The notes: a model not told the origin generated them from the letters alone. Shown: positions 3,382 through 64,000, counted from the first letter of the stretch. The stretch: 64,000 bases of DNA from Dehalococcoidia bacterium (GCA_020356025.1 CP070630.1:2040443-2104442); one strand, 5' to 3'. A program made the numbers and translations.

Positions 3382-4761
3382 CTACTCGCCCAGGCGGCGG
3401 TTGTAGTTCTCTATGATCTCATTAGCTTCGGCCGCCGCGTCATCGAGAGCCTCGGTGGGGTCTCTGGAGCCCACCACCGTCTCCTCCATAGCGGTGGCGA
3501 CGACCTCGCGCACGTCCCTGAACGGGCCGAGGAGCGGACCGAGAGACTCTGGCGTCGACGGCGCCTCCAGGAAGAGATCGATGGGGAGGCGAAAGAGCGG
3601 ATACTCGGCTATGGCGCTCTGGGCCGCCGGCAGGTCGTAAGCGGAGATTCGCACTGGCAGGTATCCGCTGCCAGCGAACCATTCCGCCTGCTGTTCGGGT
3701 TCCAGAAGCCACTTGATGAACTTCCAGGCCGCCTCCTGCTCCTCCTCGGGCCGTCCCGTCAGGATCCAGAGGCTCCGGCCGGCCATTCCCGGCAAGCCTG
3801 TCCCGCCGGGGACGCCGGGCACAGCACCCACCCCTGGCTCGACATCCATCTCCCCGCGCTCCAGAACGTCCACCACCGAACGGAGGGCTCCTGAGCTACT
3901 CAAACTCATGGTGGCCCGACCGGTTCCCATCGCCAGGAGGGCGTCGGCATAACTGGGGTTACGACCAACGCTGATGGCTAACCCTTCCTCGATCATTTCG
4001 TGCCACGAACGGAAGAAGGCCTGCCCTGCTGAACCATCGAAGACGACCTCGGTGGCTCGTCCTTCGCGTCCGTTGCCGTTGTTCACATAGAAGTCTCCGT
4101 GCTCGGCCAGGATCACTTCAAGGAACCAGGGCATGAGGACAAGGGCGATGCCGGCGCGGAGGATGTTGCCGAGGCTGTCCCGCTTTACCAGCTTCTGGGA
4201 GAACACTCGCATCACCTCCAGATCCTTCGGTGGCTGCTCGGGATCGAGCCCTACCTCGCTGAAATCCAGCTTGTTGTAGTACAGCAAGGGGACCCCAACG
4301 CCGAATGGCATCCCATAGAGCTCGCCGTCCACGGTGTAGTACTGTATGGCCTTCTCATCGAAGTCGGAGAGGTCATAGTCCTCTCGGTCGATGAACTCTT
4401 GCACCGGCCTTGCGACCCCGCTGTCGACGAGTCTCTGGGTGTCGACCTCAGCCAGATAGACGAGGGCTGGCACGTCTCCCGAACCCAGAAAGGCCGTGAG
4501 CTTGAGCATCGCTTCCTCGTCGTTTCCCTGAAAGGCCGTCTTGACCTTAACCCCGTCCTGCTCGGAGTTGAAGCGGCGCGCCAGTGACTGGATGGCATCC
4601 AGGTTGCTGGCGACCTCGGAGTGCCAGAAGGTGATCTCCACCACCCTCGCCGTTGGTGTCGAACCGTCTCCGTCTGCTGGCTCTCCTTCGTCTTCGCCAC
4701 CACAGGCGGCCACGCTTGCTGCAACAATGAGCAGCACTAAGGAGATCAGGACCTTCTTCAT
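3382..4761 (-). CDS. ABC transporter solute-binding lipoprotein, UgpB/sugar-binding family
   Basis: Lipobox VAAC; ITFWHS, LLYYNK, AWKFIKWL and GSGYLP motifs; operon with permeases. Confidence 0.85.
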   Translation of the reverse strand: MKKVLISLVLLIVAASVAACGGEDEGEPADGDGSTPTARVVEITFWHSEVASNLDAIQSLARRFNSEQDGVKVKTAFQGNDEEAMLKLTAFLGSGDVPALVYLAEVDTQRLVDSGVARPVQEFIDREDYDLSDFDEKAIQYYTVDGELYGMPFGVGVPLLYYNKLDFSEVGLDPEQPPKDLEVMRVFSQKLVKRDSLGNILRAGIALVLMPWFLEVILAEHGDFYVNNGNGREGRATEVVFDGSAGQAFFRSWHEMIEEGLAISVGRNPSYADALLAMGTGRATMSLSSSGALRSVVDVLERGEMDVEPGVGAVPGVPGGTGLPGMAGRSLWILTGRPEEEQEAAWKFIKWLLEPEQQAEWFAGSGYLPVRISAYDLPAAQSAIAEYPLFRLPIDLFLEAPSTPESLGPLLGPFRDVREVVATAMEETVVGSRDPTEALDDAAAEANEIIENYNRRLGE

Positions 4762-5643: not shown

Positions 5644-6591
5644 CTACTGATAGAACACTCGGCGCTCCAGGAAGCGAATCTGGATCACGGTCAGGCCCAG
5701 CACCAGCAGAAAGAGCGCTACGGCCTGCACCGAGGCTACTCCGTAGTCGAAGCGCTGGAAGGCGTCCTGCCAGATGGAGTAGACGATAACGGTAGTGGCG
5801 TCCAGGGGGCCACCTCGGGTCAGGATATGGATCTGGCCGAAGGACTGGAAGGCGAGGATAGTGCCCACCACCGACACGAAGAAAAGCGTTGGCGAAAGCA
5901 ATGGCAGCGTCACGTGCCAGAAAACAGATAAGTCGCTGGCCCCTTCGACGCGCGCGCTCTCATAGAGTTCCTCTGGGATTGCCTGCAGGCCGGCGAGGAT
6001 CACGATGAAGGCCAGACCCAGATTCAGCCAAACGGTGGTCGCCGACACGGCGGGCAGAGCCCAGTCCAGGTCATTGAGCCAGTCGATCCTGGGCTGGCCG
6101 GCCTCGACCAGGAAGTAGTTCAGCAGGCCAACGCTGGGGTTGAGTAGGGTGAGCCACATCAACGATGCCACCGCCACCGACGTGGCTACTGTCGAGGAGA
6201 ACATGATGCGAAAGATCGATATCCCTGGCAGCTTCTGGTTGGCCAGCAGAGCCAGCGCCAGACCCAGCAGAATGCCCGGCGGCACCGTGTACAGGGCGAA
6301 GAGAAAGGTGATCCACAGGCTGTGGCGGAAGGACTCGGACGTCAGGACAGTACGGTACTGGTCGAGCGCAACGAAGTCGCCCTGATTGCCGAAGGGATCG
6401 GTCTCGTAGAAGCCGAGGTAGACCGCCTTCAGCAGAGGGTAGAAGACGAAGGCGCCGAAGATGACCAGCGAGGGTATGAGGAAGATGAGGGCGAATCCTA
6501 AGCGGTTGATGCCTCTCAGCCGCTGTGGCAGGCGTCTTGCCACGGCTATCAGTGGCAAGCGTTGGTTCGCGGCGGCATCCGTTGCGTCCAC
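5644..6591 (-). CDS. Carbohydrate/G3P ABC permease, UgpA-like
   Basis: AGLQAIPEELYESARVEGA EAA loop; LPLLSPT; TM segments. Confidence 0.9.
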   Translation of the reverse strand: MDATDAAANQRLPLIAVARRLPQRLRGINRLGFALIFLIPSLVIFGAFVFYPLLKAVYLGFYETDPFGNQGDFVALDQYRTVLTSESFRHSLWITFLFALYTVPPGILLGLALALLANQKLPGISIFRIMFSSTVATSVAVASLMWLTLLNPSVGLLNYFLVEAGQPRIDWLNDLDWALPAVSATTVWLNLGLAFIVILAGLQAIPEELYESARVEGASDLSVFWHVTLPLLSPTLFFVSVVGTILAFQSFGQIHILTRGGPLDATTVIVYSIWQDAFQRFDYGVASVQAVALFLLVLGLTVIQIRFLERRVFYQ

Positions 6592-18760: not shown

Positions 18761-20515
18761 CTACTTATCCGCAGGAGGGCTTGGATCGGGCGGACGGTCG
18801 TCAGCGCCAAGCGGCTCGTCTTCGCCTGTCGGCGGTGGGTCGACCGTCGCTGCTGAACTGCCGGCGACAGGTGATTGGCCCAAGCGGTCCAGCGGCATGG
18901 CGCCGGCCGTTGCCTCGGGAACGGCCCACGTCTTGGCCAACGGCACTTCCTTCAGGAAGACGGCCACTACGAGCGCGGCCAGCGTTATCCCCATGCCCAC
19001 GAGAAAAGCCTCTGCTATCGCCGTGCCGAGAGCCGTGCGGGTGCCCAGCATGATCTCATTGAACATGACTGGCCCATTCTCGCCCAGGCCTGCGAAGGCG
19101 TCCCGCAACTCTGCCAGCAGGTCGGCGTTGAGGAGGGACTGGGGATTCTGAAGGCGCTCTAGGAGGGCAGGAGGCGTTGCTTCCCGAACTTCAGGCGACG
19201 TCTCAGCCGTTAGCTCGGACGAAAAGCTGCTGTTAACCAGCGACCCCATGACGGCCACTCCCATGGTGCCACCCACCGAGCGGAAGAACTGGATGGCGGC
19301 GGTAGAGACGCCCAGCATTCGATAGGGCAGAGCATTCTGGACCACCAAGACAAAGATGGGCATCGTCGCTCCCAGGCCTATGCCCACCACGATCATGTTG
19401 CGGGTAGCGATTGCGTTGGTGGAGGTAACGTCCATGCCTGACATCAGGAACATGCCGACGGCCATCACCGCCAGCCCCACCAAGGCGATGATGCGATAGC
19501 GCCCCCAGCGACCCAGGATTTGCCCCATGATGGCAGCCGTGATGGCAAGGCTCAGCATCATGGGCATGATCACCAGGCCGGAGTTGGTGGCCGAGGAGCC
19601 AATGACTCCCTGGACGAACAGGGGAAGGTAGACGATGCCGCCGAACATGCCCATAGCGGTCAGGAAGGTGACGCCGGCGGACACCAGGAAGATGGGATGG
19701 CGGAAGAGAGCAGGGGGCAGAATGGGTTCCACGGTCCGCATCTCCACAACAGCGAAGGCCAGGCCAGCCAGGGTTGCGAAGGCCAGCAGGCCTATGATCT
19801 GGGCCGAGAGCCAGGGGTACTGCTCGTTGGCCCAAGAGAAGGCCAGCAGCAGAGGCACGACGGCCAGGATGAGCATCGCCGCGCCCCAGTAGTCCAGCTG
19901 GTGCCTCACTCCGGCGCGCACGGAAGGCATCACCGCGAAGAAGACGGCCAATGCCAGAGCGCCCATCGGTAGGTTCACATAGAACACCCAGCGCCAGTTG
20001 AGGTTGTCGGTGATGTAGCCGCCGATAAGGGGCCCCGCCACGCTAGCAGCGGCAAACACGCTGGTCATGAGACCGGCCCAGCGGGCCCGCTGGGCCGGCG
20101 GGAACACGTCGCCGATGATCGCAAAGGCGGTGGCCATAATCGTGCCCGCTCCCAGGCCCTGAATGGCCCGGAAGACGATGAGCTGGATCATGCTTTGGGA
20201 CGTGCCACAGAGAGCCGAGCCCAGCATCATGACCGCGATTCCCGCCAGGAAGAAGAATTTGCGGCCATACATGTCGGTGAGCTTGCCCACGATGGGCACG
20301 GCCGTGGTGGACACGACCATGAAGCTTGTGAACACCCAGCTGTAGTGTTCGTAGCCGCCCAGATGGGCCACCACTCTGGGCATGGCTGTGCCCACTATCG
20401 TCTGGTCCATGGCCGCAGTGAACAGGCCCAGCAGCGTGCCGGCCATCACCAGCACCTTGGTGCGGGTGCTCATCTGGGAGATGCTCTGCACTTGGGTCAT
20501 GCCTTGGCTCACCAT
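18761..20515 (-). CDS. MFS exporter, DHA2 (EmrB/QacA) family
   Basis: AMDQTIVGTAMP, GKLTDMYGRK, WRWVFYVNLP; ~14 TM segments. Confidence 0.9.
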   Translation of the reverse strand: MVSQGMTQVQSISQMSTRTKVLVMAGTLLGLFTAAMDQTIVGTAMPRVVAHLGGYEHYSWVFTSFMVVSTTAVPIVGKLTDMYGRKFFFLAGIAVMMLGSALCGTSQSMIQLIVFRAIQGLGAGTIMATAFAIIGDVFPPAQRARWAGLMTSVFAAASVAGPLIGGYITDNLNWRWVFYVNLPMGALALAVFFAVMPSVRAGVRHQLDYWGAAMLILAVVPLLLAFSWANEQYPWLSAQIIGLLAFATLAGLAFAVVEMRTVEPILPPALFRHPIFLVSAGVTFLTAMGMFGGIVYLPLFVQGVIGSSATNSGLVIMPMMLSLAITAAIMGQILGRWGRYRIIALVGLAVMAVGMFLMSGMDVTSTNAIATRNMIVVGIGLGATMPIFVLVVQNALPYRMLGVSTAAIQFFRSVGGTMGVAVMGSLVNSSFSSELTAETSPEVREATPPALLERLQNPQSLLNADLLAELRDAFAGLGENGPVMFNEIMLGTRTALGTAIAEAFLVGMGITLAALVVAVFLKEVPLAKTWAVPEATAGAMPLDRLGQSPVAGSSAATVDPPPTGEDEPLGADDRPPDPSPPADK

Positions 20516-20666
20516 TCTCCTGGGGCGATTGCTCCGGCCTCCACCGCATCCGCCGCCATCGAGAGGGCAGCACGTTCATCGTATCAGCCGCCGATGGCAG
20601 CCTCAACCGCTCGCCTGGCAGCAGCCATCGCCCTGCGATATGATCGCTCTACTCGGGAGGAAGAGC

Positions 20667-21842
20667 TTGCGCCCCAACGAGGACGAGTTCGCGTCGGCCA
20701 CCGAGAGCGAGGAGCTGAAGGCCGCCATCAGAGAGGGCATCGCGGCGGAGGGCCGCATTCCCTTTCGCCAGTTCATGGCTGTGGCACTCTACCATCCCCA
20801 GCACGGCTACTACTCCTCGCCACGCCAGCGGATGGGACGCCACGGCGACTACCTCACTAGCCCCGAAGTGCACCCCATCTTCGGCTCCCTGATGGCCAAG
20901 CAGCTCTGCCACATGTGGCAGGCGATGGGCGAGCCTCAGCCCTTCACCGTCGTGGAGATGGGGGCGGGCAGCGGCCTGCTGGCTCGCGACATCCTGGGCT
21001 GGGCAGGCAGGCGAGCGCCCGAGTTCTTCCAGGCGCTGGAGTATCGGCTTATCGAGGTGAATGATTGGCTGGTTGACGGTCAGCGGCGCCTCCTGCGCCA
21101 GGTCGATGCCTCCTTGGCTAAGGTCTCCTGGCTGCCCTCGCTGGAGTCCATCGCCGCTGAGAGCGTCAGCGGCTGCTTCCTCAGCAACGAGCTGATCGAC
21201 AGCTTTCCCGTCCACCGAGTGGTGGTTCGCGATGGCCGCCTGCATGAGCTGTACGTCGAGTGGCAGGAGGAGCGCTTTGTGGAGAGCCTTGGCCCTCCTT
21301 CCACGCCCTTGCTCGAGGACTACTTCCACCGCCTCGGCCTTCTGCCCGGCGAAGGCTGCTCGGCCGAGGTGAATCTGGAGGCCCTGGTGTGGATGAAAAC
21401 GGTGGCCGGCGCCCTCCGCCGCGGCTTCGTCCTCACCTTTGACTACGGCTACCCCGCCGCGGAGTTGTATGCCCCTTGGCGCAAGGACGGCACTCTCCTC
21501 TGCTTCTATCGCCACAACCCCAGCCCGGACCCCTACGCTCGCCTGGGCCGTCAGGACATGACCAGCCACGTCGACTTCACCAGCCTCGTTCAGGCAGGCC
21601 GGGAGCATGGCCTGGAGCCGCTGGGCCTCACCAGCCAGGGCCGCTTCCTGACCGCCTTGGGCATCGCTGCCGGCCTCGAGCGCCAGGCCGACAGCGGGCT
21701 CTCCCTCGAGGAGTACTATGCGCGGCGACGGGCGGTGACGGAGCTGATCGATCCCGCCGGCCTGGGCCGGATCAAGGTGCTCGTTCAGGCCAAGGGCGTC
21801 GGCCAGCCGAAGCTGTGGGGCCTGGAGGGAAGCGAGTCCTAG
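20667..21842 (+). CDS. SAM-dependent methyltransferase, MidA/NDUFAF7 family
   Basis: FMAVALYHPQHGYY, GDYLTSPE, VEMGAGSG, SNELIDSFP, DYGY, QDMTSHVDF; probable TTG start after GGAGG. Confidence 0.9.
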   Translation: MRPNEDEFASATESEELKAAIREGIAAEGRIPFRQFMAVALYHPQHGYYSSPRQRMGRHGDYLTSPEVHPIFGSLMAKQLCHMWQAMGEPQPFTVVEMGAGSGLLARDILGWAGRRAPEFFQALEYRLIEVNDWLVDGQRRLLRQVDASLAKVSWLPSLESIAAESVSGCFLSNELIDSFPVHRVVVRDGRLHELYVEWQEERFVESLGPPSTPLLEDYFHRLGLLPGEGCSAEVNLEALVWMKTVAGALRRGFVLTFDYGYPAAELYAPWRKDGTLLCFYRHNPSPDPYARLGRQDMTSHVDFTSLVQAGREHGLEPLGLTSQGRFLTALGIAAGLERQADSGLSLEEYYARRRAVTELIDPAGLGRIKVLVQAKGVGQPKLWGLEGSES

Positions 21843-21869
21843 TACTGGTCCGACAGCAGGTGCAGGTTG
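21813..21869 (+). repeat. Left copy of a 57-bp imperfect direct repeat (att-like)
   Basis: 51/57 identical to 23740-23796; contains the MidA stop and a remnant of the radical SAM 3' end. Confidence 0.9.
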
Positions 21870-21949
21870 TCTCCTTTGCTTTCGGTAACACTACTTCTGA
21901 GGCAACATTAACCGATTCGGTAAAATTCTCAGTGAGGAAGTTCGACTAC

Positions 21950-21978
21950 TTGACAAAATCAAACCGTGGTGATAGACT
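21950..21978 (+). promoter_or_regulatory. Sigma70-type promoter for the lipase gene
   Basis: TTGACA-N17-TAGACT with extended TG. Confidence 0.7.
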
Positions 21979-22167
21979 CACCGCCCAATATGTAAAACCT
22001 TAGAACGAGGCGTATCAACGAAACGGGTTCTACCTAGCCCGATTTCTTAGGCTGAAATCATAGCTGCTCTGCTAATCAACTCCAGGAAGGGCGGTGAGGC
22101 GTTATGCCTTGATCCGCGAGAGAATCTCTGTAGAGCGTGAATCCATTAGTTCAGTGGAGCTAGGAAG

Positions 22168-23640
22168 ATGAAGATTAAACTGTTTGGCACGATTGCTGCA
22201 TTCGTGGTTGTGCTGACCGGCGTACTCGTCGCCGGATCATCGGCACCCACGCCTGCCGCCGCCGACGGCGATCCGACCCTGCTACCCATAGTCTTCGTGC
22301 ACGGCGGATCGGGTTCGGCGGCCCAGTACGAGGTCCAGGCCCAGCGATGGGCAAGCAACAACTATCCCAACGTAGTAAGAGCGCTCGACCGCTTCTCCGA
22401 CGACATACAGCCAGTCGACGAGCAAATGGATGACTTCTTCGACGCGGTCATGGCCGAGACTGGCGACGATCAGATTTTCGTGCTTTCACATTCGTACGGT
22501 TCACTACTCATGAAGAACTGGCTGAACAGCTCGCCGGAGCGGAGCGCCAAGGTCGCCAAGTTTATCTCCATCGACTCATCGTCGGCTGGGGAGAATCCCG
22601 AATGCCCGGGGAACCCTGGTCCAGTGGACTGCATCGGCATATATCGTGAGGAAAATCCGAACTACATGGGCCCGATCACGTATCGCCTCCCGCTGCACGG
22701 TCACACCCAATGTGTGACCTCCGCCGAGTCGTTCGCCATCCAGTATGAGTACCTCACCGGCGAAGAGCCCGAGACAACGCTCGTCCTTCCGGAACCCCCG
22801 GGGCAGGTTGACATCGGCGGAAGGGTGATCTTGTTCCCGGCGAACACCGTTCCGGAGGAGGCCACGCTGGAGATCTGGGAGGTCCACGGCAATTCGGGCG
22901 TCAGGAAGGACACTGCCCCGATGGCCGTCATCGAGATCGGGGAGGATGGCAACTTTGGTCCCATCAACGTCAATGGGATGAAGCACTACGAGTTCTCCCT
23001 GTACCGCCCCGAGTCCGGCCTCACCGTCCACTACTACTTCCAGCCGTTCATACGGGACGACCTCCTGATCCGGCTGCTCGTGACACCGCCTGACTCCCCT
23101 ATCCTCATGTACACGCCGACGGGCCCGGACCACGCCGCTTTGGTCATCCTCAGGTACTTTGAATGGTGGAACGATCAGGCGACCGGCAACGACACCCTGT
23201 GGGTCACCACCACGAGTCCCGCCTGGGACGATGACCCGGTCAATCCGACCCCGCCGACGCTCAACATATTGAGCAACCCGGCGGTGGCTCCCAGAGCCGG
23301 TAGCAGGCTCGGTATACATGCACACGACATAGGCCCCTACCCCACCCCCTTCCCCTACCCCGACCCCCCCGACAAGGTTTCGACTCTCGGGCTGATAAGG
23401 TTGTTCGCCTATATGCCCTTCCAGACGGGTGTAGACATCTGGATGCCCACAACTGAACCACCGGATGGGACGATCACCTTTATGAACGAGCCGAGAGGGG
23501 ACACGACGAAGCCGCAGACCATCAACATCCCCAACTGGGCGTCTGAGGACCACCGCGTCTTGGTTATCTTCAACAGCTACTTCCAGGACATCAACAGCTT
23601 CCCGGAGTGCATCGCAGCCGACCCCAGCCCCTGCAAGTAG
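22168..23640 (+). CDS. Secreted lipase resembling Archaeoglobus fulgidus AFL (alpha/beta hydrolase plus C-terminal beta domain)
   Basis: Signal peptide; PIVFVHGGSGS, SHSYG elbow, NSSPERSAKV, HTQCVTS, HYY..PFIRDDL, IPNW - matches recalled AFL segments. Confidence 0.75.
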   Translation: MKIKLFGTIAAFVVVLTGVLVAGSSAPTPAAADGDPTLLPIVFVHGGSGSAAQYEVQAQRWASNNYPNVVRALDRFSDDIQPVDEQMDDFFDAVMAETGDDQIFVLSHSYGSLLMKNWLNSSPERSAKVAKFISIDSSSAGENPECPGNPGPVDCIGIYREENPNYMGPITYRLPLHGHTQCVTSAESFAIQYEYLTGEEPETTLVLPEPPGQVDIGGRVILFPANTVPEEATLEIWEVHGNSGVRKDTAPMAVIEIGEDGNFGPINVNGMKHYEFSLYRPESGLTVHYYFQPFIRDDLLIRLLVTPPDSPILMYTPTGPDHAALVILRYFEWWNDQATGNDTLWVTTTSPAWDDDPVNPTPPTLNILSNPAVAPRAGSRLGIHAHDIGPYPTPFPYPDPPDKVSTLGLIRLFAYMPFQTGVDIWMPTTEPPDGTITFMNEPRGDTTKPQTINIPNWASEDHRVLVIFNSYFQDINSFPECIAADPSPCK

Positions 23641-23700
23641 CACGGTCATGCTGGCGCCGGCTGTTCCGTAAGGACAACCCCGGCGCGTAGCACCCGGGGT

Positions 23701-23733
23701 GCAGAGAGCCCACCGGCAAGGTGGGCTCTCTGC
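23701..23733. terminator. Perfect 14-bp hairpin after the lipase gene
   Basis: GCAGAGAGCCCACC-ggcaa-GGTGGGCTCTCTGC, immediately inside the right repeat. Confidence 0.7.
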
Positions 23734-23739
23734 CAATCA

Positions 23740-23796
23740 CTATGGGGCCTGGAGGGAAACGAGCCCTAGTACAGGCCCGACAGCAAGTGCAGGTTG
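23740..23796 (+). repeat. Right copy of the 57-bp imperfect direct repeat
   Basis: Contains a remnant of the MidA end (LWGLEGNEP*) and the real radical SAM end. Confidence 0.9.
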
Positions 23797-24875
23797 CCGA
23801 TCTTGACGTTGGCCAGCCTCGCCGCCTTCGCTGCCTTGAGGCATTCGTCGGCGTGACGACGAGAGGTCGTTGGCAGGTTGCCCATGAAGAAGTGAGGGTA
23901 GAAGGCCAGAAGGCTGTAGGGGATGGTCGGGTCGAGGGAGGCGATGAAGCGGGCGATCTGACCCACCTCGTGCGCGTCGACGTAGCCGGGTACCAGGAGG
24001 GTGCTCGCGGTGAGGAAGGGCGGCTCCTGCCGCTGGCCGAAGAGCCCACCTAGCCAAGCGAAGTTCTCCAGCGTTCGCTTGTTGCTCACTCCGCACAGAG
24101 CGAGGTAAAGGTTCTCGTCCCAGGCCTTCAGGTCGAACTTGATGGTGCCGCCCGAGTCCATGGCCAGCGCGCTCGCCTGGCGCAGGAGGGAAGGCGACAT
24201 GCTGCCGTTGGTCTCCCAGCAGATGCGCAGAGGGCGAGCCCGCCGCTCGCGCAGGGCCCGGCGGGCGGTGGCGATAGCGTGGGGCATCTGAGGTGATGGG
24301 TCTCCCCCGAAGTAGCAGATACAGGCTGTGCTCTCGTCTACGCAGTCGGCCAACTCCTGCGCGCTCATTGTAGGTGCCAGGCGGTGAGCCAGGGTGCGGT
24401 AGTGCCAGTTCTGACAGAACAGGCAGTCGAAGCTGCAGGCTCCGTAGAACACCGCCAGGTTCTTGAAGCCGCGGCTCTCCTTCTCGGCGCAGACCCATTC
24501 GGCCACACAGTTCGTGGGCAGGGGATCGTAGTACCACTCCAGGATGCCGCTGGCGGCCGTCCCGCCCAGGTGCGTGAGCTTCCCGCCACGATTGCTGCGC
24601 AAGCCGCAGTAGCCCAGTTCGTCTTCGGGGATCTGGCACTCGTTGGCGCAGAAGGTGCAGGGCACACCGTCGGCCACCTGGGGCGGCTCGACAGGCAGGC
24701 CGAACTGTCTTCGGGCCTCGGCGTGCACGCCCTTCAGGTGAGGCATCACTCTATCCGGCTGCTGGCGGATGCAGTCCAGGCACGTCCCCAGATTGGCGGC
24801 GATCAGCAGCGAGCTCTTGCCGCAGCCCTGGCAGGTGCCCTCCTTCAAACGAGGCGCCGACAGGTAGCGGATCAT
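23766..24875 (-). CDS. Radical SAM protein, PflA/AmmeMemoRadiSam-like
   Basis: CSFDCLFC motif, N-terminal CxxC clusters, CYFGGDP, WETNG, DLKA. Confidence 0.85.
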   Translation of the reverse strand: MIRYLSAPRLKEGTCQGCGKSSLLIAANLGTCLDCIRQQPDRVMPHLKGVHAEARRQFGLPVEPPQVADGVPCTFCANECQIPEDELGYCGLRSNRGGKLTHLGGTAASGILEWYYDPLPTNCVAEWVCAEKESRGFKNLAVFYGACSFDCLFCQNWHYRTLAHRLAPTMSAQELADCVDESTACICYFGGDPSPQMPHAIATARRALRERRARPLRICWETNGSMSPSLLRQASALAMDSGGTIKFDLKAWDENLYLALCGVSNKRTLENFAWLGGLFGQRQEPPFLTASTLLVPGYVDAHEVGQIARFIASLDPTIPYSLLAFYPHFFMGNLPTTSRRHADECLKAAKAARLANVKIGNLHLLSGLY

Positions 24876-25109
24876 CGACCTCTCTCCAGCGCCTAGTGTA
24901 TCATGGCCAGCCCGATCGTCCCTCGCGTTCCATTATGGTAAACTTGAACGGCCATAGACTTGACGCAGCGCTTGCGGTCGCGCTAAAACCAGCATGGCAC
25001 CCGCAAAGACAGCGACCTTGCACTGAACCGACGGTGGTGCAGGTTGCGATGAGGCCAGGCGGGTTTGATATCGGCTCTTTCCGTTGAATGGGCTTCGCCA
25101 GGAGGTGTG

Positions 25110-60729: not shown

Positions 60730-60767
60730 CTACGGCGCGATGGTCATGCTGCAGCTCACGGGGGCCG
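60730..60767 (-). repeat. Duplicated 3' end of the edge ORF (remnant)
   Basis: 33/38 identical to 63519-63556; reads APVSCSMTIAP* versus APVSCSMAIVP*. Confidence 0.75.
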
Positions 60768-63518: not shown

Positions 63519-64000
63519 CTAGGGGACGATGGCCATGCTGCAGCTCACGGGCGCCGTGACCAGGATGAGGAAGGCGTCGTACCCGTCCAGCGGCCCCATG
63601 TTGGAGATCTCTGGCCGGTCGGGGAAGTAGCGCTCCCAGCCCCCACCTACCAGCCGATAGGCAGCAGCGTAGCTGCCCTCCGCGCAGTCGAACACGTCCT
63701 CAGGCGGCATGCCGTCGGCACCTGTCCACCCCTCGTTCTGCCAGCCCACGCTCCAGTCCAGCGTGCGTTCGGTGCCCGCCGCATCGGCCACCTCCATCTG
63801 GCAGGTGACCTCCTCGGTGTTAAGGATGAGGAAGGCTTCATACTGTTCCAGGTCTGCCATGTTGGAGAGGTCTGGCCGGTCCGGGAAGTGGCGCTCCCAG
63901 CCTCCGCCCACCAAGCGATAGGCGGCGGCGTAGCTGCCGTCGGCGCAAGCGAACGCCTCCTCAGGGGTGGAGGCGCCGCTCCAGGTCTCGTTGTGCCAGC
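63519..64000 (-). CDS. C-terminal part of a probable surface protein with two ~70-aa repeats (5' end beyond the window)
   Basis: Frame is open to the edge; two YAAAYRLVGGGWERxFPDRP units with a 261-bp period. Confidence 0.75.
   Translation of the reverse strand, partial: WHNETWSGASTPEEAFACADGSYAAAYRLVGGGWERHFPDRPDLSNMADLEQYEAFLILNTEEVTCQMEVADAAGTERTLDWSVGWQNEGWTGADGMPPEDVFDCAEGSYAAAYRLVGGGWERYFPDRPEISNMGPLDGYDAFLILVTAPVSCSMAIVP

Follow-up and report, generated by a model that had tools for sequence, protein, structure and literature searches.

A lipase unit between two copies of a 57-nt gene junction in an uncultured Dehalococcoidia genus

A 64,000-nt stretch of the genome of a Dehalococcoidia bacterium (GCA_020356025.1, CP070630.1:2040443-2104442; hereafter the window) contains a lipase unit that lies between two 57-nt direct repeats. 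Each repeat copies the junction at which a MidA-type methyltransferase gene and a gene for a radical SAM enzyme meet tail to tail. Comparison with relatives from the same uncultured genus confirmed that the unit is a true insertion at this junction and that both resident genes have been kept intact. The favoured explanation, which is given a probability of about one half, is one ancient insertion that duplicated a long stretch of its target, i.e., a one-off join without site specificity that persisted since both genes are spared only if the insertion duplicates the junction.

The duplicated junction and its empty counterpart

The two copies, at positions 21813-21869 and 23740-23796, are identical at 51 of 57 positions; they start 1927 nt apart and enclose 1870 nt. 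An initial annotation of the window had described this repeat, and both repeat analysis and a genome search recovered it at the same coordinates. The search covered the whole genome (2.175 Mb, single contig) and returned only these two copies of the 57-mer, the second with an E value of 8.9e-16. Direct reading of the sequence also confirmed the proposed layout, in which each copy contains the real end of one gene and a relic of the end of the other. The real C-terminus of MidA in the left copy reads ...GSES before the stop codon and that of the radical SAM enzyme in the right copy ...LLSGLY, and in the left and the right copy alike one CTAG holds both stops.

The predicted empty allele, with both stops in one CTAG and a single 57-mer, was found in seven distinct congeneric sequences: G002, G004, G006, G007, G009, L033 and L035 (G and L labels denote genomes and loci of relatives, G000 being the window genome). 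In the five of these that are species representatives (G002, G004, G006, G007 and G009), MidA directly abuts the radical SAM gene, and the same arrangement is present in three congeneric metagenome contigs, one of them identical to G004. Among 80 metagenome loci that encode a relative of the radical SAM enzyme, the three congeneric ones were all empty and no other cargo was detected. Outside the genus, the MidA and radical SAM genes are not neighbours.

The filled site is present in four independent assemblies, namely the window genome, L030 (94.4% identity to the window over 5.5 kb), G008, and L168, a short contig that contains the right junction. An assembly artefact, which the initial annotation had named as a finding that would overturn its reading, can be excluded because the filled arrangement recurs in L030, G008 and the right junction of L168. 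A mis-join draws on general caution about metagenome-derived genomes, and its probability is negligible, as the four independent assemblies share the same structure with a divergence that is consistent with the species tree.

In the trees of both flanking genes (MidA, support 100/99; radical SAM, support 100/98), the filled genomes group as one clade. Thus, a single insertion in their common ancestor suffices to explain them. At the unlinked RecG-ArgRS locus, G008 and G003 are the closest relatives of the window genome. That the insertion happened once and was followed by vertical inheritance and an exchange of the cargo in situ is well supported.

Origin and decay of the two copies

Parsimony over the filled lineages indicates that, in the ancestor of the clade, 52 of 53 positions in the relic halves agreed with the host: the relic radical SAM half was identical to the real end at 27 of 27 positions, and the relic MidA half at 25-26 of 26. 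Later changes in the relics are substitutions private to single lineages and a 1-nt deletion in L030. The relic halves are non-functional and are now drifting. Their near-identity to the host at the origin is better explained by a duplication of host sequence than by a foreign attP.

Replacement of the cargo in situ

The junction lipase of G008 and L168 shares 36-41% protein identity with the window lipase and is termed type B, the window lipase being type A. Common to both versions of the locus are the 57-nt repeats, the hairpin region, and the leader including promoter and boxes (73% over 297 nt). Because the second cargo shares the repeats, the leader and the hairpin, the coding sequence was replaced in situ and not brought in by a second integration. 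The initial annotation had suggested looking for other cargo at this site; a different lipase does occur in a sister species, but the common repeats, leader and hairpin speak against an independent integration.

Codons ~1-8 of the window lipase (22168-22191) resemble the type-B lipase of G008, and the remainder is of type A. From lipase nt ~25 through the hairpin (22192-23733), the window shares 84-90% nucleotide identity with type-A lipases at different loci, and the proximal part of the leader is conserved with L166, a type-B lipase locus of another family. The window lipase is thus a chimera with a B-like start and a type-A rest. In the simplest history, a type-B unit with its own leader was inserted once. 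Later, in the lineage of G000 and L030, the part that reaches from codon ~9 of the coding sequence to the hairpin was replaced in situ by a type-A paralogue that carried a 3' flank resembling the end of NadA.

A possible loss in G003

The genome G003, from a sister species, contains one copy of the junction. Its radical SAM gene has been deleted between two TGGCCAGCC 9-mers, whose window equivalents lie at about 23810-23818 and 24904-24912, and only the last ~50 nt of the gene remain. This lineage therefore makes microhomology joins. The G003 junction has a T at repeat position 34. Elsewhere, this variant was seen solely in the left relic copy of G000 and L030, and its presence in G003 would fit a recombination between the repeats that removed the unit. 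The tree of the neighbouring MFS gene groups G003 with G000 and L030, i.e., nested within the filled clade, but the RecG-ArgRS tree places it outside G000 and G008 with a support of 100/99. Because the gene trees disagree, a loss in G003 is possible and not demonstrated; G003 was accordingly rejected as proof of excision and serves as a hint only. The metagenome-assembled genome G003 is labelled Acidobacteriota at NCBI, and its 10,734-nt junction contig clearly belongs to the Dehalococcoidia genus of the window.

Searches for a site-specific or mobile system

The initial annotation had likened an 8-bp identical core within the repeats, CCTAGTAC, in size to the overlap region of a tyrosine recombinase. 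A recombinase core at this place did not survive comparison with shuffled controls: the best-scoring 9-nt inverted arms around a 5-9-nt spacer agree at 5-6 of 9 positions, a score that 459-500 of 500 shuffles reached. No inverted arms are centred on the 8-mer, which merely marks the interval between scattered mismatches around the stops. An attC-like folding of the 57-mers was likewise rejected, since it is no better than that of shuffles (z -0.98 to +1.97), and the repeat analysis found no terminal inverted repeats joining the ends of the insert. A recombinase hidden in the unit was also considered and dismissed; an antisense open reading frame (ORF) of 386 amino acids and several small ORFs have no Pfam match, and the G+C content at third codon positions (GC3) of the 386-amino-acid ORF is low, at 0.57.

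The window genome encodes recombinases at five PF00589 places, including two of Xer size, one pseudogene and one fragment, and at one place for a serine recombinase (PF00239). None of them is close to the unit: all PF00589 and PF00239 places are more than 100 kb away, and the closest is the pseudogene at a distance of ~109 kb. When the junction was searched as degenerate patterns in the GTDB species representatives and in viral contigs, the 57-mer was found in neither outside the junctions of the genus itself, a search by which a diverged attP may be missed. The unit had no match in plasmid and phage collections. Further copies of the 57-mer, which the initial annotation had proposed to look for in the genome, were thus not found there; GTDB representatives of other genera, viral contigs, plasmids and phages yielded none either. 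What holds of the suggested targeting of tail-to-tail junctions without gene breakage is the insertion that left both genes intact; another target was found neither in the genome nor in any collection.

The direct repeats at both ends contain a target gene's 3' end, as attL and attR do. They are compatible with an integrative element or a cis-mobilizable element (CIME) and are not specific for either. Tidy repeats of ~50 nt around a single gene are insufficient to call an att-flanked mobile cassette.

How the unit may have been inserted

In the common ancestor of a small subclade, a foreign lipase unit consisting of operator, promoter, leader, coding sequence and hairpin was joined into the zero-spacer junction of MidA and radical SAM. 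About 57 bp of the host junction were left on both sides, so that the native C-termini were kept, each beside a relic of the end of the other gene. According to the favoured explanation, the event would have been illegitimate and one-off, without a dedicated site-specific recombinase; candidate routes begin with two joints 57 nt apart, placed either on a staggered break or on sister chromatids, and end with fill-in. The repeats would by now be important solely because deletion, amplification or gene conversion can use them as substrates. That a duplication is seen here may be due to survivorship: where stops overlap, both genes stay whole only if the insertion duplicates the junction.

A number of observations weigh against this explanation. 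To our knowledge, no enzyme or pathway yields joints that are offset by 57 nt. The published pattern of insertion with long target duplication dates back decades and is itself mechanistically unexplained (Furuta, Abe and Kobayashi 2010, NAR 38:2428, PMC2853133). Ku (PF02735) and ComEC (PF03772) were not detected in the window genome, which is estimated to be 83% complete and contains 13,900 bases N; classical end-joining and natural transformation are therefore not evident routes. The edges of the insert are tidy, reaching from the ribosome-binding site of a neighbour to 6 nt beyond the hairpin, which random breakage would not predict. The reconstruction of the ancestral relics is based on just 53 positions in three or four lineages. 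Finally, the same genome contains cargo-only islets of similar size between 44-52-nt repeats of tRNA 3' halves, which are also of similar length. Islets flanked by tRNA halves are a classic integrase footprint and therefore raise the prior for a site-specific origin.

Such an origin would make the unit a fossil of site-specific integration: a circular element with an attP that copied the junction was integrated by its own integrase or by one acting in trans, the repeats are attL and attR, and what remains is an inert, CIME-like islet. The integrase and other genes would then have been lost before the clade diversified. The repeat length of 57 nt is near the 44-52-nt range of the tRNA-half repeats in this genome, the edges of the unit are tidy, and integrases do exist in the genome (the five PF00589 places and the serine recombinase in a 52-kb NadA island, described below). 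In a genome without ComEC or Ku, integrative elements are a plausible means of DNA entry, and CIMEs are defined as keeping attL and attR after the loss of integration and transfer genes (PMC5704250). However, the nearest integrase is the pseudogene ~109 kb away, relics of integration or transfer genes are absent from the unit, and a recombinase-type core was not found. An element with a matching attP is present in none of the collections searched (GTDB representatives, viral contigs, plasmids and phages), a larger occupant was seen at the junction in 0 of 12 related loci, and related lipase units elsewhere are free of repeats. Moreover, nothing in the function of an attP calls for a match with the host across 26-27 nt to either side of the crossover, whereas both relics were essentially identical to the host at the origin. 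Because the tRNA islets and the NadA island indicate that integrase traffic leaving small cargo-only residues is common here, and because Ku and ComEC were undetected, a decayed integrative element is kept as the main alternative, at about one in three.

The proposal of the initial annotation, a minimal cassette that is still active and is moved to tail-to-tail junctions by a tyrosine recombinase in trans via the 8-bp overlap CCTAGTAC, is quite improbable. An empty site and a second cargo both exist at the junction, the single copy with T34 in G003 is compatible with a loss between the repeats, and one gene tree nests G003 in the filled clade. Yet the filled genomes are one clade, so one event is enough, and the unlinked locus puts G003 outside G000 and G008, so a loss is not needed. 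Repeats, leader and hairpin are common to both cargoes, which points to a swap in situ, the relics are decaying and include a 1-nt deletion, inverted binding sites around the 8-mer are absent, and another copy or target is absent from the genome and from the collections searched. The idea of a minimal mobile cassette mobilised in trans is thus not supported, in view of the single clade, the decaying relics, the in-situ swap, and the lack of both a core and a further copy in these searches. A Campbell-type single crossover, in which a non-replicating circle that already bore a 57-bp copy of the junction beside the lipase unit recombined homologously with the chromosome, would by its topology yield exactly the observed product with copies identical to the host at the origin. 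By the same mechanism, a unit flanked by repeats could also leave the chromosome as a loop and return to a related site that is empty. This route leaves the first linkage of the junction to the lipase unexplained, 57 bp are poor for RecA-type recombination, neither a circle nor a second occurrence of the 57-mer was found in the genome or in GTDB representatives, and a DNA-uptake system is not evident; it is considered improbable. In a broader and doubtful generalisation, insertion with long target duplication would be a general route, independent of cargo and nuclease, by which single-gene units with their own expression signals settle at gene ends and tail-to-tail junctions. It would be driven by an activity of the host or in trans, also in streamlined bacteria that lack competence and Ku, and a unit flanked by repeats would remain excisable as a circle able to enter empty junctions of related cells again. 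One active process would then have left three traces: the lipase unit, a block at the NadA end of the congener contig L032 (see below) and the possible precise loss in G003.

The inserted unit and its neighbours

Features of the unit, of the resident genes and of the tRNA-derived islets are compiled in Table 1.

Table 1. Coordinates of the features discussed (positions refer to the window, except for the last two rows, which refer to C1)
Feature	Position	Strand	Description or basis
Resident gene 1, PF02636 (Methyltransf_28, "MidA"-type) methyltransferase	20568..21842	+	Pfam E = 9.4e-66
Left copy of target duplication	21813..21869	.	Real MidA end 21813-21842 (stop 21840-21842) and relic radical SAM 3' end 21839-21869 (minus-strand sense)
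Insert left end	21870..21949	+	TCTCCTT, relic ribosome-binding site of a divergent gene that was lost; two operator-like boxes of ~26 nt follow
Operator-like boxes	21881-21906 = TTCGGTAACACTACTTCTGAGGCAAC; weaker second box near 21915-21940	+	Within the insert left end
Sigma-70-type promoter TTGACA-17-TAGACT	21950..21978	+	10/12 consensus positions, with TG; kept in G008 and L030
Conserved 5' leader of lipase, ~190 nt	21979..22167	+	Blocks common to G008, L030 and type-B locus L166 (another family)
Cargo lipase, 490 amino acids, "type A"	22168..23640	+	Predicted secreted alpha/beta-hydrolase with Lipase_C and AF_1763-like C-terminal domains (Pfam)
3' flank accompanying type-A lipases	23647..23700	+	Includes stretch like NadA 3' end of congener (CATGCTGGCGCCGG CTGTTCCGTAAGG...)
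Hairpin, perfect 14-bp G+C-rich inverted repeat, no T-run	23701..23733	+	Inverted-repeat search; presumed terminator
Right copy of target duplication	23740..23796	.	Relic MidA end 23740-23769 (relic stop 23767-23769) and real radical SAM 3' end 23766-23796 (minus strand)
Resident gene 2, radical SAM enzyme	23766..24875	-	Pfam PF04055; weak AmmeMemoRadiSam/activase-like match
tRNA-half islets, C1	88146, 92960, 96124-96196 (tRNA-Arg tct), 98650; 399461 / 401109 (tRNA-Thr)		
tRNA-half islets, C1 (continued)	789547 (tRNA-Arg tcg) / 790804; 1681563 (tRNA-Met) / 1683935; 1688420 / 1691320		

The longest ORF of the MidA-type gene begins at 20382, and its likely start lies further in; its orthologues in congeners are 86-92% identical. 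Orthologues of the radical SAM enzyme show an identity of 87-92%, and all of its NCBIfam matches are below the curated cut-offs.

The left end of the insert and the leader have a low G+C content (0.46-0.53, compared with 0.63 for the genome). The ~26-nt box TTCGGTAACACTACTTCTGAGGCAAC occurs once in the window genome. It is also present in 17 of 400 other Dehalococcoidia genomes, directly upstream of a -35 hexamer and beside the point at which a divergent gene starts. In these genomes it precedes unrelated genes and is often repeated in tandem, two or three times. The box resembles an operator, or a promoter-associated motif, that serves some factor across the whole class.

The leader blocks CAGGCTGAA, AAGGGNGGTGANGC, CTGTAGAGC and CTAGTTNAAGGGAG are kept across families (window 21979-22167; L027 4395-4587; L166 4810-5003), and some of the predicted base pairs survive sequence changes. 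A comparison of the leader and the whole unit with Rfam matched zero families. The leader may be a cis-regulatory RNA, for which it is a candidate.

Downstream of the lipase gene, the NadA-like stretch (23647-23732) matches L032 1917-2003 at 83%. A hairpin is found at the equivalent position after the lipases of L030, L031, L032, G008 and L166, with stems that differ yet still pair. The window hairpin was not flagged as a terminator by a consensus scan, and because it has no T-run, it can only be presumed to act as one. The initial annotation had described the unit as a promoter, one gene and a terminator without a recombinase. Promoter, gene and the lack of a recombinase hold, and the terminator, which has no T-run and is unflagged, stays presumptive. 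The lipase is the sole ORF of the unit with Pfam matches; none of the other ORFs matched a Pfam family.

The window lipase matches the protein in PDB entries 2ZYH, 2ZYI, 2ZYR and 2ZYS with a phmmer E value of about 1e-39 and with the Ser, Asp and His columns aligned. We take these entries to be AF1763 of Archaeoglobus fulgidus. The two proteins are homologous over their full length and share the alpha/beta-hydrolase, Lipase_C and AF_1763-like C-terminal domains. In contrast to the structurally characterised protein, the window lipase has the nucleophile motif SHSYG instead of GHSMG and a signal peptide, and the overall similarity is low. The cargo is thus predicted to be a secreted lipase.

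Related lipase units at other loci

Lipase units occur at at least five loci besides the window junction. In G008 and L171, type-A units (a tandem pair in G008) are located between ArgRS and TrpRS; the same site is empty in the window genome. Further type-A units were found in L169, beside a VRR-NUC gene, and in L173 and L174, and in L166 a type-B unit is enclosed by TrmO and GyrB. The type-A unit of L031, which belongs to an unrelated genome, adjoins a PucR-like regulator. Including its 3' flank (L031 3797-5332), it shares 89.6% nucleotide identity with the window, and this points to a recent horizontal transfer. The other genes of L031 are unlike those of the window genus; nearby genes encode an ABC transporter of the iron type and a TonB-dependent receptor. 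Downstream of the L031 lipase, a stretch looks by eye like a candidate cobalamin riboswitch.

No flanking repeats were detected around the lipase units inserted in spacers, i.e., at ArgRS/TrpRS (G008 and L171) and in L031, L166 and L169. A different situation is found in the one other insertion that struck the end of a gene, in the congener contig L032, where a TetR-lipase-lipase block lies between perfect 26-nt duplicates of the NadA 3' end (1905-1930 and 6489-6514). Each lipase of this block is followed by a partial copy of the NadA end and a hairpin (4612-4696 and 6351-6437). The block could be an array that arose by repeated insertion or tandem duplication. Because the NadA end in L032 is duplicated and the units in spacers are repeat-free, repeats are present where a gene would be truncated and absent in spacers.

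Other repeats and islands in the genome

The window genome also contains a 340-nt direct repeat (96%) of the 3' part of NadA around ~52 kb (C1:775629-775968 and 827997-828336). This stretch holds the only serine recombinase of the genome (821408-821815), and the displaced original NadA end adjoins a phosphoribosyltransferase gene. It is probably an island that integrated into NadA.

Islets of 1.2-6 kb lie between 44-52-nt copies of the 3' halves of tRNA-Arg(tct), tRNA-Thr, tRNA-Arg(tcg) and tRNA-Met (Table 1). None of the PF00589 or serine recombinase places of the genome falls inside these islets. At tRNA-Arg(tct), relic halves are present on both sides of the intact gene, which simple accretion does not predict.

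At two further places, the 3' part of a protein gene is copied 1-2 kb downstream (C1:349584-349631 / 351661-351708 and 1888795-1888973 / 1889865-1890043). The first of these repeats brackets an ORF of 434 amino acids beside two tRNA-Ser genes; the content of this site varies among congeners, and the relic in G005 measures 124 nt. A repeat within the window itself (60730-60767 / 63519-63556) was rejected as a sister case of gene-end duplication: the ORF at the window edge belongs to a family of at least 10 copies, and its stop-region sequence recurs at many loci in the window genome and in related genomes.

Comparison with known systems

Integron gene cassettes and dif/pdif modules are single-gene units that lack a recombinase of their own and are moved in trans. 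The window unit resembles them in being single-gene and recombinase-free, but it has its own promoter and no attC-like hairpin, dif-like core or adjacent IntI. It also differs from DNA transposons and miniature inverted-repeat transposable elements (MITEs), as it has no terminal inverted repeats and its duplication of 57 nt is not short and fixed.

Islands that target tRNA or tmRNA genes in streamlined genomes are represented by the ssrA islands of Dehalococcoides (McMurdie et al. 2011, PMC3146451) and by tycheposons (Hackl et al., bioRxiv 10.1101/2020.12.28.424599). Like the window unit, they consist of small cargo modules between partial target 3' ends in a streamlined genome, and the window genome has tRNA-half islets of its own. 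These islands carry or adjoin recombinases and have RNA genes as targets, whereas the target in the window is a pair of protein genes and the recombinases are unlinked. CIMEs are elements that were stripped of their integration and transfer genes and have kept attL and attR (Guedon et al. 2017, PMC5704250). The window unit is similarly cargo-only, and the direct repeats on either side of it contain a target gene's 3' end. Unlike CIMEs, it lacks a matching integrase, an att-type core and any relic of integration or transfer genes, and it shows neither accretion with another element nor a sign of excision.

The locus documents a rare, dated history within a small clade, with empty, filled, cargo-swapped and possibly re-emptied states. 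For annotation, it provides the lesson that repeats of ~50 nt around one gene are not proof of an att-flanked cassette. It also bears on how accessory hydrolases move among sediment Dehalococcoidia.

The closest parallel is insertion with long target duplication, which was described in the context of restriction-modification units for inserts of <20 kb without mobility genes, flanked by a duplication of >30 bp that is single-copy in a relative with an empty site (Furuta, Abe and Kobayashi 2010, NAR 38:2428, PMC2853133). In that study, 46-bp examples overlap the 3' ends of genes, most cases come from naturally competent species, and double-strand breakage by the carried restriction enzymes was tentatively proposed as the cause. 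In the same manner, the window unit is a 1.87-kb insert without a mobility gene, its duplication is unique and longer than 30 bp, and the empty relatives have one 57-mer with both flanks aligned. As in the 46-bp examples, the duplication overlaps gene 3' ends. The cargo, however, is a lipase and not a restriction-modification system, and breakage by a nuclease of the cargo itself can therefore not apply. The host is an uncultured Dehalococcoidia bacterium without detectable ComEC, and the target is a zero-spacer junction at which two genes were rescued at once. A cargo that is not a nuclease, in a genome without visible ComEC or Ku, argues that neither a cargo nuclease nor natural transformation is needed. 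The window unit thus displays every structural characteristic of insertion with long target duplication, with a cargo of a different class.

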